DNA from: Candidatus Gottesmanbacteria bacterium RIFCSPLOWO2_01_FULL_43_11b
GTDB lineage: Bacteria > Patescibacteriota > Microgenomatia > UBA10105 > UBA927
Length of the DNA: 64,000 bases
Assembly: GCA_001780985.1 (NCBI GenBank)
Contig: MFJV01000001.1
Location: 158,980 to 222,979 of the forward strand
Direction: 5' to 3'
A program made the position numbers and the translations under genes. The notes below the pieces were generated by a model. That model was not told where the DNA came from. It was given only the letters and a program-made list of their open reading frames with translations, and did not search any database. Shown in pieces: positions 5,685 to 30,470 of the stretch. Each line of letters begins with the position of its first letter. Positions within the stretch are counted from its first letter, which is position 1.

Positions 5685-6065
5685 TTATTTTCGTAATTTG
5701 CTAATTTTATCAAGTGCTCTATTAACCTTATCCCAAAACACTTCCATCTTTTCCTCATGTATCAACTTTTCTAGAATCCGCTTTACGCCCTCCCCTCCTT
5801 TATCCAACCAATTTCCTACTCTGTTAATCGTTGAAGTGCTCACATGAAGTATAAAGTGTATATCTTCATAGCTGTATTCTTTTTGTATCATAAGAGCAAT
5901 CGCTAATCTTTTTGCCAACATGACTCGTTCTGTTTTCGTAAAAAAATCGTAGAAAAAATCCTTCGCTTCTGATTGAGATCGAATTGCACCTAACACCCAC
6001 AAAAAATCATCTCGAATTGAGTAATAGACATCTTTATGAATCGGATTACGAGAAATTTGTGTCAT
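5685..6065 (-). CDS. TrpR-like DNA-binding protein, YerC/YecD family
   Basis: 126 aa. TERVMLAKRLAIALMIQKEYSYEDI..VSTSTINRV is the YerC/YecD helix-turn-helix pattern. Confidence 0.75.
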   Translation of the reverse strand: MTQISRNPIHKDVYYSIRDDFLWVLGAIRSQSEAKDFFYDFFTKTERVMLAKRLAIALMIQKEYSYEDIHFILHVSTSTINRVGNWLDKGGEGVKRILEKLIHEEKMEVFWDKVNRALDKISKLRK

Positions 6066-6124: not shown

Positions 6125-7594
6125 TCAATACGCTTGGGCGAAAAGCCAGCGGTGGGTAGCGGGTTTGCCGCAGTGAACACACGTTCCCTTTTCTTCTTTC
6201 GGCACCTGCCTGCCGGCAGGCAGGTCTAAGGGTAAACAACGGTTTGAAGCTTTGGTTTCTGCTTTAATTTTTGTTTCGCACGAGGCATCCTCACACCAAA
6301 ATGCGGAAATAAATCCCCGCTCCCCCGCCATAATCTTTTTAAAATGATCATACGATTCTACCGTATGTGTATGATCCAGAGTAAATTTCTTGTGAGTTTC
6401 CAATAAATTTTGTTGTATCGTCTCTAACATGCCAGAAATTTCATCGATACTAACTTTCTTTTTTTGCATTGTATCGCGAGCAACAGCAGTAACTATTCCT
6501 TCTTCCGCTTCCTTATCACCAATCTCAAGTCGGATCGGCACACCCCGGACCTCCCATTTATTAAATTTAAAGCCTGCACTTTCCCCATCTTTATCATCGC
6601 ATTTGACGCGAATCCCTATTTTTTTCAGCGCCTCTCTTTGTGCTATTGCATATTTTATGGTTTTAGGGCTCGATCCAGGAATAGGAATAAGGATCACCTG
6701 AATAGGTGCGATATTTGGAGGCATAATGAGCCCTTGATCGTCTCCGTGCGCCATGATGAGCCCGCCGATACTTCTTGTGGAGAATCCCCAACTGTTTTGC
6801 CACGGATAGAGCGGCTGTCCTTTTTCATCCTGCACAGTCCAATGAAATGCTTTTGCAAAATTTTGACCTAAATCGTGTGACGTACAACCTTGAAGCGCCT
6901 TACCATCCGGCATCAACATTTCAAAGGTATACGTTTTCTTAGCACCGGCAAATTTTTCCGATTCGCTCTTAACACCTGCAACACCGTAGAGAGCGAGAAG
7001 ATTCTGGTACGTCTCTTTGTACATATCGAGTGCCCAACGAACCTCGGAAACCGACTCTTTGTGAGTATTATGAGCGCAGTGTCCTTCCTGCCACAGAAAT
7101 TCACTCGTTCGTAAAAAGAGATACGTTCGCTTCTCCCATCGAACAATGTTATTCCATTGATTGATGCGGATTGGCAAATCTCTGTAGCTTTGAGTCCAAC
7201 GTTTGTACATTTCATACATAATCGTTTCACTGGTCGGCCGCACCACTAAGCGTTCTTTGAGTTCTTCTCCGCCAGCAAAAGTCACCACAGCCATATGAGG
7301 AGCAAATCCCTCTACGTGTTCTTTTTCAAGATTAAGGAATTTTTCCGGTATAAAGAGAGGAAAATACGCATTCTCCACTTTATGAGCTTTAATAAGTGGA
7401 TCCATGTAGTGTTGAATTCCTTCCCATAGCGCGAATCCATACGGACGAATAACCATACACCCCTTTATCGGCGCGTAATCGGCAAGTTGGGCTTTCAAAA
7501 TAACGTCTGTATACCAATCCGATAGATTGTCGCTTTTTTTCTTGAGCTCTTTCTTTTCAAATTGCTTTTGCATATTAGTAAAGTTTTCCTCCAA
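6125..7594 (-). CDS. proS: proline--tRNA ligase (archaeal/eukaryote-like type, C-terminal zinc module ending in Y)
   Basis: 489 aa with class II aaRS motifs. The C-terminus CVHCGKPATHRWLFAQAY is typical of this ProRS type. Contains the DLPAGRQ palindrome insert. Confidence 0.92.
   Translation of the reverse strand: MEENFTNMQKQFEKKELKKKSDNLSDWYTDVILKAQLADYAPIKGCMVIRPYGFALWEGIQHYMDPLIKAHKVENAYFPLFIPEKFLNLEKEHVEGFAPHMAVVTFAGGEELKERLVVRPTSETIMYEMYKRWTQSYRDLPIRINQWNNIVRWEKRTYLFLRTSEFLWQEGHCAHNTHKESVSEVRWALDMYKETYQNLLALYGVAGVKSESEKFAGAKKTYTFEMLMPDGKALQGCTSHDLGQNFAKAFHWTVQDEKGQPLYPWQNSWGFSTRSIGGLIMAHGDDQGLIMPPNIAPIQVILIPIPGSSPKTIKYAIAQREALKKIGIRVKCDDKDGESAGFKFNKWEVRGVPIRLEIGDKEAEEGIVTAVARDTMQKKKVSIDEISGMLETIQQNLLETHKKFTLDHTHTVESYDHFKKIMAGERGFISAFWCEDASCETKIKAETKASNRCLPLDLPAGRQVPKEEKGTCVHCGKPATHRWLFAQAY
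6204..6225. repeat. 22-bp perfect palindrome acctgcctgccggcaggcaggt (copy 1, inside proS)
   Basis: Read directly from the sequence. It is self-complementary, and the same core occurs at 24939 and 37006. Confidence 0.95.
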
Positions 7595-7910: not shown

Positions 7911-7930
7911 AATTGTCAGCTCCTTTCCAC

Positions 7931-8080
7931 AAAAAAACCGTTCTCCTTCATAAGGGTGAACGGTTCGTCCACGGTACCACCTTATTTGATTCTTAATTCA
8001 AGCTATCACGGGCATTCCCGTTTCTGTTCTTAGCAGAACCGCTTGTCCCGTTCGGAGCGGGACTCAAACGCGTTTCAATA
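7931..8080 (-). promoter_or_regulatory. T-box riboswitch leader with intrinsic terminator, upstream of csaA-proS
   Basis: The minus strand contains aauaAGGUGGUACCGUGG (T-box sequence, 7969..7983). A terminator hairpin (aaccgttc..gaacggtt plus U7) follows at 7931..7965. A short Stem I hairpin gucccg-CUCCGAA-cgggac (8045..8063) has a loop that could present a CCG(A) proline specifier. Confidence 0.7.
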
Positions 8081-8113
8081 CTCCATGTAGTCTACCTTGA
8101 TCTGTTGTCCTTG

Positions 8114-8842
8114 TCAATTATCATTACCCTGTCCCTGGCCTTGTCCCTGGCCTTGCCCTTGTCCCTGGCCTTGTGATCCCATGCCTTGAGGATTATTATC
8201 ATTGCTATCATTTTCTTCTTCCAAATCCTCATCGTCGGTCTCCGTAATTTTTTCGAGTTCTTCAATTGTTTCTTCAATCGTTTCCTGGGTATCGGAAATT
8301 TCTTCCTGAATCGTGTCTTCTGTTTCGGGCTCTTGAATTATCGATTGCGTGGATGTTGGCGTAGGTGTCGACACAACGATTTGTGGGGTAAAAAAGGGTG
8401 TGGGCGTGGGGATGGGTGTTGGCATTTGTTGGGGTCTACTGGTTATTTCAGTTCTTTGTTGCTCGAGTTCTTGGGCAACTGTCTTGAGTGTTACCAGATA
8501 GGTTTGCGCAAGCTGTTTTTTCGCAGTTCTATTTGGCGCTCTGTCAATAACAGCTTTGGTTACCGCAACTTGCTTCTCTAAGTACGGCAATCCTTCAATG
8601 GATTGTTTATCCGATAGCAATCGTTTAACCTCCCCAAATCGCCGCTCTGTATACTTCACGTTAAGCGCACCGCTTGCCGCATAGGAAGGTTTTGCTAAAA
8701 ATAACAGTGTCGATTCAAGGGCAAGTTTCGTTGGATACAAGACATTCCCTGGAAGAGCATTCCAGGAAGCAACGATAAGAACACTTGGGACGGCAAAGAG
8801 GAGTAAAAATCCCCACGTAAAATAATCCAAGATTTTCCGCAT
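8114..8842 (-). CDS. membrane-anchored hypothetical protein with acidic low-complexity tail and terminal (GQ)n repeat
   Basis: N-terminal TM helix, PTP-rich linker, acidic stretch, and GQGQGQGQ encoded by 12-bp tandem repeats at about 8130..8180. Confidence 0.6.
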   Translation of the reverse strand: MRKILDYFTWGFLLLFAVPSVLIVASWNALPGNVLYPTKLALESTLLFLAKPSYAASGALNVKYTERRFGEVKRLLSDKQSIEGLPYLEKQVAVTKAVIDRAPNRTAKKQLAQTYLVTLKTVAQELEQQRTEITSRPQQMPTPIPTPTPFFTPQIVVSTPTPTSTQSIIQEPETEDTIQEEISDTQETIEETIEELEKITETDDEDLEEENDSNDNNPQGMGSQGQGQGQGQGQGQGQGNDN

Positions 8843-17568: not shown

Positions 17569-17611
17569 GAAGAGGTTAGGTTCTTTAAAAGAGGGCGGAA
17601 ATTGGAAAATT

Positions 17612-17755
17612 TAAAGCGTGTGGACCAGCCCCTCGCGAGGAGCTGGTATACGAGGAAGGGGAAAATCGAATAGCCCGCCAGTCGGCGGATAAATCTGCGG
17701 ATACCCCTTGGTAGCGCTCTCTACCACAACAATAGACAGAAATGACTATTGAGGA
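17612..17755 (+). promoter_or_regulatory. glmS ribozyme/riboswitch
   Basis: aA|GCG cleavage-site context at 17615/17616. P1 hairpin gaccagc..gctggt. Conserved core strings ACGAGGA and AUCGAA..UCGGCGGAU. Sits directly upstream of glmS. Confidence 0.75.
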
Positions 17756-17778
17756 GCCCGTCTCTCTTTCTAAACTTC

Positions 17779-27966: not shown

Positions 27967-28663
27967 CATGTTTATTCCCGGTTTTCACCGGGGCATGGAC
28001 TATATCTTCATCCGCAAAAATTGACGTTTTTCTGGATGAACCGAACCAATTATTTTTGCAAAATCGTTGTAAGACCTTGCCGAAATATAAAATCTCCAAT
28101 AATTCGGATCAACCGTTTTACTAGGATTATGAATTACTCCACAATGAATACTTAATTCTTCTAAATAGTGTTTTACTTGTAAAAGATCTTGCTTGTCCTT
28201 TTGACAAAAATACAAGTAATACCTCACCGAAGAATTTTTAGCAATACCACCTTCTGCATCGAAATAACCTCGGATATATTCGATTTTGTCGTTCTTAGAA
28301 CGTATTTCAATATCTCGTAAAATCTTTTTCGGAAATTCTACTATCCAAAGATTACGAGACTTTCCTTCTTTATATATCCAAGCTCCAACATGTAATTTAC
28401 GAATTCCTATTTTTAGAAACTGCGCAAATTCTCTACTGTTAGTTGCTATTCGATAGGTAGATTGCCGACTGGTACCATCGTGAGCCATTCCCAATAAATA
28501 TGGTTTCGTCATATGCGGCGCCAACGTGTAGTCTCTACGGAGTCCCCGATATAATCAGGGTTCCCTCGGTATTCCCATATGTTGATTATAAACCAAGCAT
28601 GAAGGGTTCACCGATACAGTTGGATTTTCCCATACCCTTACGGATATGGGTCGCAACAAACTT
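27967..28663 (-). mobile_element. group I intron (697 nt) in the 16S 3' region (inside the 1492R primer site), carrying a homing endonuclease ORF
   Basis: It splits AAGTCGT|AACAAGG. The 5' exon ends in U and the intron ends in G. Core strings AGAGACUACACG (28525..28536) and GAUAUAGUCC (27997..28006) flank the ORF. Confidence 0.8.
28000..28524 (-). CDS. LAGLIDADG homing endonuclease (intron-encoded)
   Basis: 174 aa with two LAGLIDADG-like motifs (YLLGMAHDGT and YIRGYFDAEGG). The TAG stop lies inside the intron core element GAUAUAGUCC. Confidence 0.82.
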   Translation of the reverse strand: MAPHMTKPYLLGMAHDGTSRQSTYRIATNSREFAQFLKIGIRKLHVGAWIYKEGKSRNLWIVEFPKKILRDIEIRSKNDKIEYIRGYFDAEGGIAKNSSVRYYLYFCQKDKQDLLQVKHYLEELSIHCGVIHNPSKTVDPNYWRFYISARSYNDFAKIIGSVHPEKRQFLRMKI

Positions 28664-29056
28664 ACGACTTAGTCCCCATCGCTGAGTTCGGCTTCGACCG
28701 TAAAAACGGCCTTCAGCCGCCCCCAACTTTGTTGGCTTGACGGGCGGTGTGTACAAGACCCGAGAACGTATTCACCGCAGCCTTCTGATCTGCGATTACT
28801 ACCGATTCCGACTTCATGAGGGCGGGTTGCAGCCCTCAATCTGAACTGAGGCGAAATTTCAGGGATTTGCTTGCCATTACTAGTTTGCATCCCATTGTTT
28901 TTCGCCATTGTAGGGTGTGTGTTACCCAGGGTATAAGCGCCGTGCTGACTTGACGTCGTCCGTTCCTTCCTCCCCGATACATATCGGGGCAGTCTCCGAT
29001 GACACTTATAACATCGGATACGGGTTGCGCTCGTTCTCCTACTTAAAGGAACACCC

Positions 29057-29087
<31 letters not shown>

Positions 29088-29202
29088 GCTGTGATACCAT
29101 CCTTGCGGATAGCCTACTATTTCTAGCGGGTTAAAACGGTACCATGTCAAACCCTGGTAAGGTTTTTCGCTTTGTCTCGAATTGAACCACACGCTCCACC
29201 GG

Positions 29203-29234
<32 letters not shown>

Positions 29235-29625
29235 TAATCTTGCGATCGTACTCCCCAGGCGGTCTGCTTAACGCGTTAGCTTACGTCAGTCCCCCTTGCG
29301 GCGGACCAACTAGCAGACATGCGTTTAGGGCTAGGACTACGCAGGTCTCTAATCTGCTTCGCTCCCCTAGCTTTCGTGTCTCAGCGTTAGGTGTGGGCCA
29401 GAAAGGTGCCTTCGCCTTTGGTGTTCCTCATGATATCAACGCATTTCACTGCTTCACCATGAGTTCCCCTTTCCTCTCCCATCCTCAAAGACTCCCCATC
29501 TCGAACCCAACGCCGAGGTTAAGCCTCGGGCTTTCAGGTTCGATGCGGAAATCCGCCTACACGACACTTTACGCCCAGTGAATCCGGATAACGCTTGCAC
29601 CCTACGTATTACCGCGACTGCTGGC

Positions 29626-29880
29626 CCGCCACAATTTTTTGTAGCGAACTTTGGACTATATCATCACCCCACAGATTGGGGGTCTCGCGTGTAGTCTCTG
29701 AGGACTCTCCCCGCCATCCTTTCATTATAAATGAAGGCGGAGGTTGCCTGCTGATTGTCTTGATACATGCTTGCTTTCGCAAAACTATTTCGCGGACATA
29801 TCAAGGTGTTCCAGCATATAGCGAGATTTTCTTTTACCGTATTACTACAGTAACTACGCACCATCCGATTACATCGAATC
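29626..29880 (-). mobile_element. ORF-less group I intron (255 nt) in the 16S 515-region
   Basis: It splits AACTACGT|GCCAGCAG. It has the same AGAGACUACACG (29688..29699) and GAUAUAGUCC (29653..29662) core strings as the other intron, with a short P8-like hairpin between them. It starts after U and ends in G. Confidence 0.75.
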
Positions 29881-30286
29881 ACGTAGTTTGTAGGTGCTTA
29901 TTCGCCAAACCTCGATGATCTGGCAAAAGAGGTTTACATACCGAAATACTTCATCCCTCACGCGGCGTCGCTCGGTCAGGCTTTCGCCCATTGCCGAATA
30001 TTCCTAGTTGCTGCCATCCGTAGATGTATAGCCCGTGTCTCAGTGCTATTGTGGGGGGTCGCGCTCTCACGCCCCCTACCCGTCATCGCCTTGGTAGGCC
30101 ATTACCCCACCAACAAGCTGATAGGAGCAAGGCCGCTCTTCCTCCGTGCCGTTACGCACTTTGATCTTACGACCTCATGGAATATTACCCCGTCTTTCGA
30201 CGAGCTATGTTCCAGAAAAAGGTACGTTCCTTGCTTATACTCACCCGTCCGCCACTAATCTTTCGACCGTTCAACTTGCATGCCTA

Positions 30287-30329
<43 letters not shown>

Positions 30330-30470
30330 AAAAAAAATTAACGTCCCGGATATCATGATTCGCTTACGCTCATCACCATCCGGGTCCGGCTGATGTCGCA
30401 ACGCGACATAATAGCCGGATTCCTATCACCATTCGTTTGTCAAATGTTAATGTGCGACTCTCAATGAGCG

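Follow-up and report, generated by a model that had tools for sequence, protein, structure and literature searches.

A probable proline-specific T-box with an ultrashort Stem I and an intrinsic terminator ahead of csaA-proS in a Gottesmanbacteria genome

The csaA-proS gene pair of Candidatus Gottesmanbacteria bacterium RIFCSPLOWO2_01_FULL_43_11b (Patescibacteriota) is preceded by an RNA leader which, judging from its sequence and from that of its relatives, is very probably a proline-specific T-box that carries its specifier in an apical loop and acts by transcription attenuation of the two genes. It was found in a stretch of 64,000 nucleotides (contig MFJV01000001.1, positions 158,980 to 222,979), which we refer to as the window. 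What makes this leader a T-box is its discriminator, its switch and the logic of its specifier; it does not belong to class I. A preliminary description of the window, made from the letters and their open reading frames, had proposed such a T-box, and all the sequence features that it named are present on the minus strand (8085..7931), each where it had been placed.

The T-box core, AGGUGGUACCGUGG, lies at 7982..7969. A motif search allowing two mismatches was uninformative (three matches versus 3.3 expected), and we used an exact search for the 14-mer AAGGTGGTACCGYG instead, which occurs once in the 64-kb window and in none of 100 shuffles. The surrounding sequence, AAAUAAGGUGGUACCGUG at 7987..7970, corresponds to the T-box consensus AANNNGGGUGGNACCGCG, with posterior probabilities near 1 in the alignment to the Rfam family RF00230. 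From this sequence, an antiterminator of the expected make-up can be formed, i.e. helix A1, a seven-nucleotide bulge of the UGGNACC type and helix A2. Across the related leaders described below, A1 is 95% and A2 99% paired, and both helices covary; UGGUA is found in the bulge of every relative with an intact core, and the family form of this bulge is UGGUA(C/A)C. The antiterminator is followed by an intrinsic terminator hairpin with a GC-rich stem (-13.3 kcal/mol) and a U7 tail (7937..7931) directly after it. The 5' strand of the terminator shares positions 7965..7950 with the 3' strand of the antiterminator, so that the two folds are mutually exclusive, in agreement with the competition that had been proposed at the outset. 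The terminator fold is the more stable one (-14.9 kcal/mol versus -11.6 kcal/mol for the forced antiterminator fold), and the hairpin includes neither the Shine-Dalgarno sequence nor the start codon. Consequently, the default state of the switch should be OFF, with transcription termination as the control point. The features of the leader and the genes behind it are compiled in Table 1.

Table 1. Features of the csaA-proS leader and the downstream genes, in window coordinates
Feature	Position	Strand	Details
Sigma-70-type promoter	8089..8117	(-)	-35 TTGACA 8117..8112, 17-nt spacer, -10 TAGACT 8094..8089; 10/12 consensus matches
K-turn-like (GA motif) base around Stem I	8040..8072	(-)	C-stem CGC 8072..8070 with GCG 8042..8040; GUU-UGA 5' strand, GA 8065..8064
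Ultrashort Stem I	8045..8063	(-)	6 bp, GUCCCG 8063..8058 with CGGGAC 8050..8045; apical heptaloop CUCCGAA 8057..8051
Proposed specifier CCG	8055..8053	(-)	Pro codon; purine A8052 after, U8056 before
Miniature Stem II	8022..8038	(-)	5 bp, UUCUG with CAGAA; purine-rich heptaloop CUAAGAA 8033..8027; 17 nt
Stem IIA hairpin and F-box-like tail	8002..8021	(-)	ACGGG-AAUG-CCCGU 8021..8008; tail CCCGUGAUAGC 8012..8002; aligns to RF00230 Stem IIA/B
Small Stem III	7986..8001	(-)	UUGA-AUUAAGAA-UCAA; variable, often longer hairpin here in relatives
T-box sequence and antiterminator	7950..7985	(-)	A1 7985..7980 with 7955..7950; bulge UGGUACC 7979..7973; A2 7972..7970 with 7958..7956
Intrinsic terminator	7931..7965	(-)	AACCGUUC...GAACGGUU stem 7965..7936, then U7 7937..7931
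Shine-Dalgarno AAGGAG	7925..7920	(-)	downstream of and outside the terminator hairpin
csaA	7910..7575	(-)	111-aa free-standing tRNA-binding OB-fold protein; PF01588 51.5 bits, NF007495 160.7 bits, TIGR02222 CsaA 144 bits
proS	6125..7573	(-)	archaeal/eukaryal-type prolyl-tRNA synthetase, 482 aa; TIGR00408 proS_fam_I 544 bits (cut-off 437); PF09180 ProRS-C_1

The 5' domain is built of few and short elements, and the aptamer comprises about 123 nucleotides to the end of the antiterminator. As had been noted from the sequence, a single hairpin stands in place of the long Stem I, and its loop presents CCG followed by A. Placing the specifier at the tip of a short Stem I is what marks the ultrashort or class II type (PMC7583486). 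The layout of this heptaloop, C-U-CCG-A-A, is that of a tRNA anticodon loop (Y32, U33, triplet 34-36, R37, N38). Stem I rises from a K-turn-like base with the family pattern C-stem-N3-(U)GA-Stem I-(G)GA-C-stem, in which the C-stem covaries (GC/GC, CC/GG, UGC/GCA, CGC/GCG) and the helix is 92% paired. Stem II is a plain 5-bp hairpin without an internal loop, unlike the elongated, S-turn-bearing Stem II of class II, and S-turn motifs (AGUA, GAA) are absent from the aptamer. Its stem covaries (UUCUG, CUCCG, UUCCG, UCCCG, UCUCG; all five pairs change on both sides, 97% paired) while its loop is conserved, reading CUAAGAA with five consecutive purines (AAGAA) in the subgroup of the window and GAAA, GAUGA, GAAGA or AAAUAA in other relatives. 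Stem IIA and its F-box-like tail are nearly invariant, even in a canonical tyrosine T-box (locus L098). Upstream of these elements, a sigma-70-type promoter overlaps the stop codon of the preceding gene, and the transcript is predicted from this promoter to start near 8082, about ten nucleotides ahead of the K-turn-like base. Many relatives likewise have a TATAAT-like box 8-12 nucleotides 5' of the basal helix, which leaves no room upstream for a hidden long Stem I.

The relatives were gathered by a scan for prolyl-tRNA synthetase (ProRS) in a genome collection and a scan with a CsaA alignment in a metagenome collection, followed by motif searches and a covariance model. By its ProRS relatives the window falls within Patescibacteria (Microgenomates, Shapirobacteria-like), in keeping with its intron-bearing 16S rRNA. 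This yielded 28 further leaders of the same kind in Patescibacteria, i.e. 29 with that of the window, which share one order of elements: a K-turn-like base, Stem I (4-7 bp with an apical loop), a short Stem II, Stem IIA and its tail, a variable Stem III, and the antiterminator. A MAFFT alignment of whole leaders misaligned the rows with eight-nucleotide loops or long inserts (L085, L087, L084, L003) as well as Stem I of the CCC-type rows, and a covariance model seeded from five clean rows was used in its place. In the resulting alignment, 95.8% of the cells are paired, compared with 71.7% after column shuffling (none of 500 shuffles reaches the observed value) and 37-43% when the partners are slid by one to three columns, and 27 of the 28 pairs change on both sides. 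Stem I is paired in every relative, with compensatory changes at all six pairs. Since an alignment fitted to a model leans towards this model, the 5' domain was also aligned with MAFFT alone and its pairs were counted again; although three rows of this second alignment are visibly out of register, 83.6% of the cells are paired, versus 74.1% after shuffling and about 40% after sliding, and nine pairs have changed on both sides.

Within this family, further arrangements were observed. The leader at L147:150-290 is even more reduced: about 48 nucleotides separate its Stem I hairpin (loop ACUCCCAAC) from the T-box core, and the terminator with its U-run is kept, but no recognisable Stem II or Stem IIA was found in this leader. 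An extra conserved element, GYRC..UGUC followed by a short hairpin and GGAG-YRC, lies between Stem IIA and the core at L001, L003, L004, L084, L098 and L102, that is, in ultrashort proline leaders and in the canonical tyrosine leader L098, and is absent from the window. At three loci, a small open reading frame (91-115 aa, no Pfam match) is inserted between the T-box and csaA or proS (L003:1013-1285, L004:2514-2858, L084:365-655).

The family also speaks for the amino acid. The preliminary description had read the loop as a proline specifier on the grounds that CCG is followed by a purine and matches the downstream proS, and this reading holds up in the related genomes. The 29 leaders have 15 distinct Stem I loops on 19 distinct stems; CC is the sole dinucleotide common to all loops, and the triplet is always CCN, namely CCG in seven, CCC in six and CCU in two of the distinct loops. 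A purine follows the triplet in all 15, and a U precedes it in 14. The genes behind the leaders are all related to proline: archaeal-type proS, bacterial-type proS (TIGR00409; L119, L143), csaA, pyrroline-5-carboxylate reductase (proC; L102) and ornithine cyclodeaminase (ocd; L001). Because the same leader stands before two non-orthologous types of ProRS, the loop triplet appears to follow the amino acid rather than the descent of the gene next to it. At L119 (2835-4067) and L143 (2830-4065), a short ProRS of the bacterial type (410 aa) comes after the T-box-csaA unit, so that the unit has outlasted a replacement of the synthetase. Furthermore, CCG is the most-used proline codon in the long open reading frames of the window (31%), a weak proxy for a tRNA reading it, and some tRNA reading CCG must therefore exist.

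It is highly improbable that the specifier is another triplet of the loop, such as UCC (serine) or CGA (arginine), or lies elsewhere in the leader. UCC does occur in 14 of the 15 distinct loops, and the loop of the window also holds CGA and GAA. However, UCC does not occur in L085 (CCACCGAA), and the base after it is G, C or U instead of always a purine; CGA and GAA are missing from the CCC- and CCU-type loops, which leaves CCN as the only universal triplet and the only one with a purine always after it. Moreover, none of the regulated genes belongs to serine or arginine, and the 123-nucleotide aptamer contains no other conserved unpaired triplet.

Regarding the mode of action, a strong hairpin with at least five U residues that overlaps the 3' strand of the antiterminator is found in 23 of the 29 leaders. 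The remaining six have no U-run: in three of these, the Shine-Dalgarno sequence is taken up in an alternative helix with the antiterminator 3' strand, and the other three are without an evident sequestering helix. Both modes thus occur on the same reduced scaffold. These six leaders, together with several relatives in which the U-run abuts the start codon and with the literature, which ties a short Stem I to translational control, could suggest that the same proline T-box acts mainly on translation or mRNA stability and that the U-run hairpin is secondary. For the window, we consider this unlikely. Sequestration of the Shine-Dalgarno sequence, the trait of the actinobacterial class II T-boxes, is not seen there: the Shine-Dalgarno sequence and the start codon are free of the hairpin, and a GC-rich stem followed by U7 is a textbook intrinsic terminator, the form that also predominates in the family.

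The low visibility of this leader in database searches can be explained by its architecture. The RF00230 model matches 8077..7949 with 33.4 bits (E = 5.8e-6 in a local search; 1.1e-3 when the whole window is compared with all 4227 families). The covariance-model check proposed in the preliminary description thus gives a significant match and fails formally, the score being below the gathering score of 93: an Rfam scan of the window at gathering thresholds reports no T-box, and the match surfaces only under an E-value threshold with permissive filters. Stem II, Stem IIA and the antiterminator parts align with high posterior probability, and the shortfall arises because about 90 model positions of Stem I are replaced by 24 nucleotides. 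Relatives of the ultrashort type score 37-44 bits, whereas the canonical controls reach 100-108 bits; L148 scores 61.8 bits. The canonical controls comprise proS leaders from Firmicutes (100-108 bits; GAA-CCU-A specifier in an internal loop) and the leader at L098 (100 bits), a Tyr-type leader with a full-length Stem I and a UAC specifier region on a patescibacterial contig, 5' of genes for chorismate mutase and DAHP synthase. As these controls lie at or above the gathering score, the low score of our leader reflects the missing Stem I and not a poor T-box. Class I leaders have a long Stem I in which the specifier lies in an internal loop, while an AG bulge and a distal loop form the elbow-binding double T-loop (IDTM); none of these features is present here, and neither an AGAGA nor a GGUGNRA motif was found in the leader.

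Several observations weigh against a proline-specific attenuator. The U at the variable position of the bulge predicts A73 in tRNA-Pro, and A73 is the rule in bacteria and archaea; however, neither the 64-kb window nor the 97 related loci contain a tRNA-Pro gene, so that the anticodon and this discriminator base are predictions. Among the collected loci, no leader of the ultrashort type has a non-proline triplet or precedes a non-proline gene, and the sole non-proline T-box, the tyrosine leader L098, is of the long-Stem-I type; the correspondence of triplet and gene that these sequences suggest thus concerns a single amino acid. The K-turn-like base of the window has AA on its 3' strand (8044..8043), in place of the GA of the family consensus. 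A IIB pseudoknot is not demonstrable, as the candidate, a GC:GC contact of invariant bases, is beyond the reach of covariation. We infer tRNA binding and readthrough from the established T-box mechanism. According to the literature, transcriptional T-boxes need the elbow-binding IDTM because it makes the capture of the tRNA fast enough to precede the arrival of the polymerase at the terminator, and an ultrashort Stem I needs the S-turn of Stem II (PMC7583486); both IDTM and S-turn are absent here. To these points come the RF00230 score below the gathering threshold and the leader of the closest relative, L001 (ProRS 86% identical), which keeps Stems I and II and is without the UGGNACC bulge.

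This leader (L001:1469-1620) has the same Stem I loop, CUCCGAA, a Stem II and a terminator with U7 as in the window, and its core is replaced by GAGG-CUUAGGUAGAAUCGA-CCUC; it precedes the ornithine cyclodeaminase gene, which is followed by csaA and proS. It may be either a decayed T-box or a switch that no longer reads the 3' end of the tRNA. Together with the low score and with the loss of an elbow platform and an S-turn, both held important in the literature, such a case could be taken to mean that the leader of the window, too, is a decaying or non-functional remnant, with a terminator that is constitutive or otherwise controlled and a CCG loop that is incidental. We regard this as very unlikely, because compensatory changes maintain all helices across divergent lineages, and because CCN-purine and UGGUA are conserved in 28 leaders even though the identity of the ProRS drops to about 50% and two loci have a different type of ProRS.

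If the leader is a proline-specific T-box, its action may be pictured as follows. The anticodon of uncharged tRNA-Pro (CGG, or UGG by wobble) would pair with CCG at 8055..8053, and its free 3' ACCA end would pair with UGGU at 7979..7976 of the bulge. This docking would stabilise the antiterminator and allow RNA polymerase to read through into csaA-proS. The 3' end of charged Pro-tRNA, on the other hand, would be unable to dock, such that the terminator forms and transcription stops. More speculatively, the anticodon-loop-like geometry of the heptaloop could strengthen the anticodon contact as a loop-loop kissing interaction that works without an elbow platform or S-turn, and the AAGAA purines of the Stem II loop may take over what, in the ileS structures, is the task of the purine string of the S-turn, namely to latch the helix of codon and anticodon (PMC7583486).

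Hairpins ahead of a synthetase gene could also be bound by a protein. In E. coli, for instance, thrS is a known case of autoregulation by an aminoacyl-tRNA synthetase through a tRNA-like operator, and a similar attenuator could be imagined here, in which ProRS, CsaA or another RNA-binding protein binds the leader hairpins, for example as tRNA mimics. The first gene of the pair does encode a tRNA-binding protein, and a weak match to a PyrR-binding site covers the region. This match, however, is at chance level (16.2 bits, E = 8.4) and was dismissed. The leader has a full T-box discriminator including UGGUACC, which is specific for the 3' end of a tRNA, and OB folds of the Trbp/CsaA type bind free 3'-terminal CA ends (PMC11286949), which an internal leader hairpin does not offer. 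We also considered that the Stem I hairpin mimics the anticodon arm of tRNA-Pro for recognition by ProRS, and rejected this idea, since the loop presents the complement CCG and not a copy, NGG, of the anticodon that ProRS reads. Taken as a whole, a protein-mediated attenuator appears extremely improbable, and a tRNA-responsive T-box is the preferred interpretation.

The recurrence of csaA beside this T-box is conspicuous. In a set of 47 patescibacterial proS loci (L001-L044, L065, L070, L077), csaA adjoins proS in nine of the 15 loci with a T-box and in none of the 32 without one; in the metagenome set, csaA-proS pairs without a T-box core within 420 nucleotides also exist (e.g. L092, L094). 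A co-crystal of Trbp111 with tRNA from 2024 shows that this fold captures only the free 3'-terminal CA, with an affinity of ~3 uM that is close to the ~2 uM of the T-box discriminator for the same end, and Trbp was suggested to keep tRNA tails from pairing with UGGN sequences (PMC11286949). The idea that CsaA substitutes for the elbow platform, based on the earlier belief that Trbp111 binds the tRNA elbow, was rejected on this evidence, given that Trbp111 binds only the 3' CA end (PMC11286949). A csaA gene under T-box control may possibly serve as a feedback element or as a helper of ProRS. That CsaA is itself part of the sensing circuit, competing for tRNA 3' ends or handing them over to the UGGU bulge and to ProRS, in combination with a kissing contact of heptaloop and anticodon, is a doubtful, if attractive, proposition; if true, it would make CsaA part of a protein-RNA feedback loop on the T-box's own ligand.

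In the window, the first gene is indeed csaA, encoding a tRNA-binding protein as had been predicted. The overlap with proS that had been described along with it is not found: the csaA stop codon (7577..7575) is followed by the proS ATG at 7573, an overlap would arise only from an upstream TTG start at 7594, and a gene call made independently on the source contig arrives at the same ProRS of 482 aa. Directly 3' of proS and on the same strand lies a gene of the Trp repressor family (5685..6065 (-); PF01371, 56.8 bits), in an order identical to that on the source contig. Elsewhere in the window, we found a glmS ribozyme/riboswitch at 17604..17761 (+) (RF00234, 43.7 bits, gathering score 37) and a 16S rRNA gene at 28616..30335 (-) that is interrupted by a group I intron (29631..29890; RF00028, 57.2 bits). 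Another match of the group I kind (27976..28174 (-), 38.3 bits, below the gathering score) lies between the 3' end of the 16S rRNA gene and genes for tRNA-Cys and tRNA-Ile.

T-boxes with an ultrashort Stem I have so far been described as mostly actinobacterial and translational, with an S-turn-bearing Stem II that becomes essential for them (PMC7583486), and later papers (PMC11297988, 2024; PMC12990946, 2026) still equate a short Stem I with the translational ileS T-boxes. In TBDB, the search with the class II model covered only Actinobacteria, plus class I matches in which Stem I is truncated. Full-text searches for T-boxes together with Patescibacteria, Candidate Phyla Radiation or Saccharibacteria returned nothing relevant; Sherwood 2015 and the structure papers were outside these searches, so that an earlier mention is possible. 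A covarying family that joins an apical-loop specifier and a 17-nucleotide Stem II to a terminator would be a natural counter-example to the rule that transcriptional T-boxes have a long Stem I. It raises the question of how a contact of three base pairs, with few other apparent aids, recruits the tRNA fast enough, or whether slow transcription in these slow-growing bacteria with small genomes relaxes the constraint. At about 123 nucleotides, the aptamer is smaller than two structurally studied T-box RNAs (167 and 169 nucleotides, PMC12990946), which makes it attractive for structural work and for engineered tRNA sensors. Moreover, as the curated Rfam threshold misses this class, T-box regulons are under-annotated in Patescibacteria, a poorly studied phylum, and the leader marks csaA as a gene that is co-regulated with proline charging.

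Among the known systems, the likeness to the actinobacterial ileS T-boxes of class II (Mycobacterium, Nocardia; Sherwood 2015, 6UFG, 6UFM, via PMC7583486, PMC12990946), which had been remarked upon early, extends to some parts of the architecture and not to others. Both have a short Stem I with an apical specifier above a K-turn or, in our leader, a K-turn-like base, a purine after the codon, a Stem II, a IIA/B region and a discriminator with a UGGN bulge, and both are without the elbow-binding double T-loop. The leaders described here, however, are specific for proline (CCN) rather than isoleucine and belong to Patescibacteria rather than Actinobacteria. Stem II of the window consists of 5 bp and a purine-rich loop, instead of an elongated S-turn helix of ~40-70 nucleotides, and an intrinsic terminator, present in the window and in 22 of its 28 relatives, takes the place of the Shine-Dalgarno sequestrator. 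In the window, about 123 nucleotides lead to the end of the antiterminator, compared with 167 in the RNA used for the M. tuberculosis ileS T-box structure (PMC12990946).

With the canonical class I T-boxes (RF00230; the Firmicutes proS leaders L058, L064 and L066, and the Tyr-type leader L098), our leader shares the 14-nucleotide T-box sequence, the A1/bulge/A2 antiterminator, the terminator with its U-run, a K-turn or K-turn-like base of Stem I, the F-box-like CCGU after Stem IIA and, as specifier, a codon that fits the gene and has a purine after it. By contrast, it is missing about 90 positions of Stem I and with them the distal loop, the AG bulge and the S-turn-bearing internal loop that houses the class I specifier; its own specifier has come to lie in a terminal loop. 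Finally, the glyQS T-boxes, minimal transcriptional representatives such as that of B. subtilis (169 nucleotides), are likewise compact and act on transcription, but have been reduced at the opposite end of the aptamer: they drop Stem II and keep the long Stem I with its elbow contact, whereas the leader described here has given up the elbow platform and retained Stem IIA along with a miniature Stem II.

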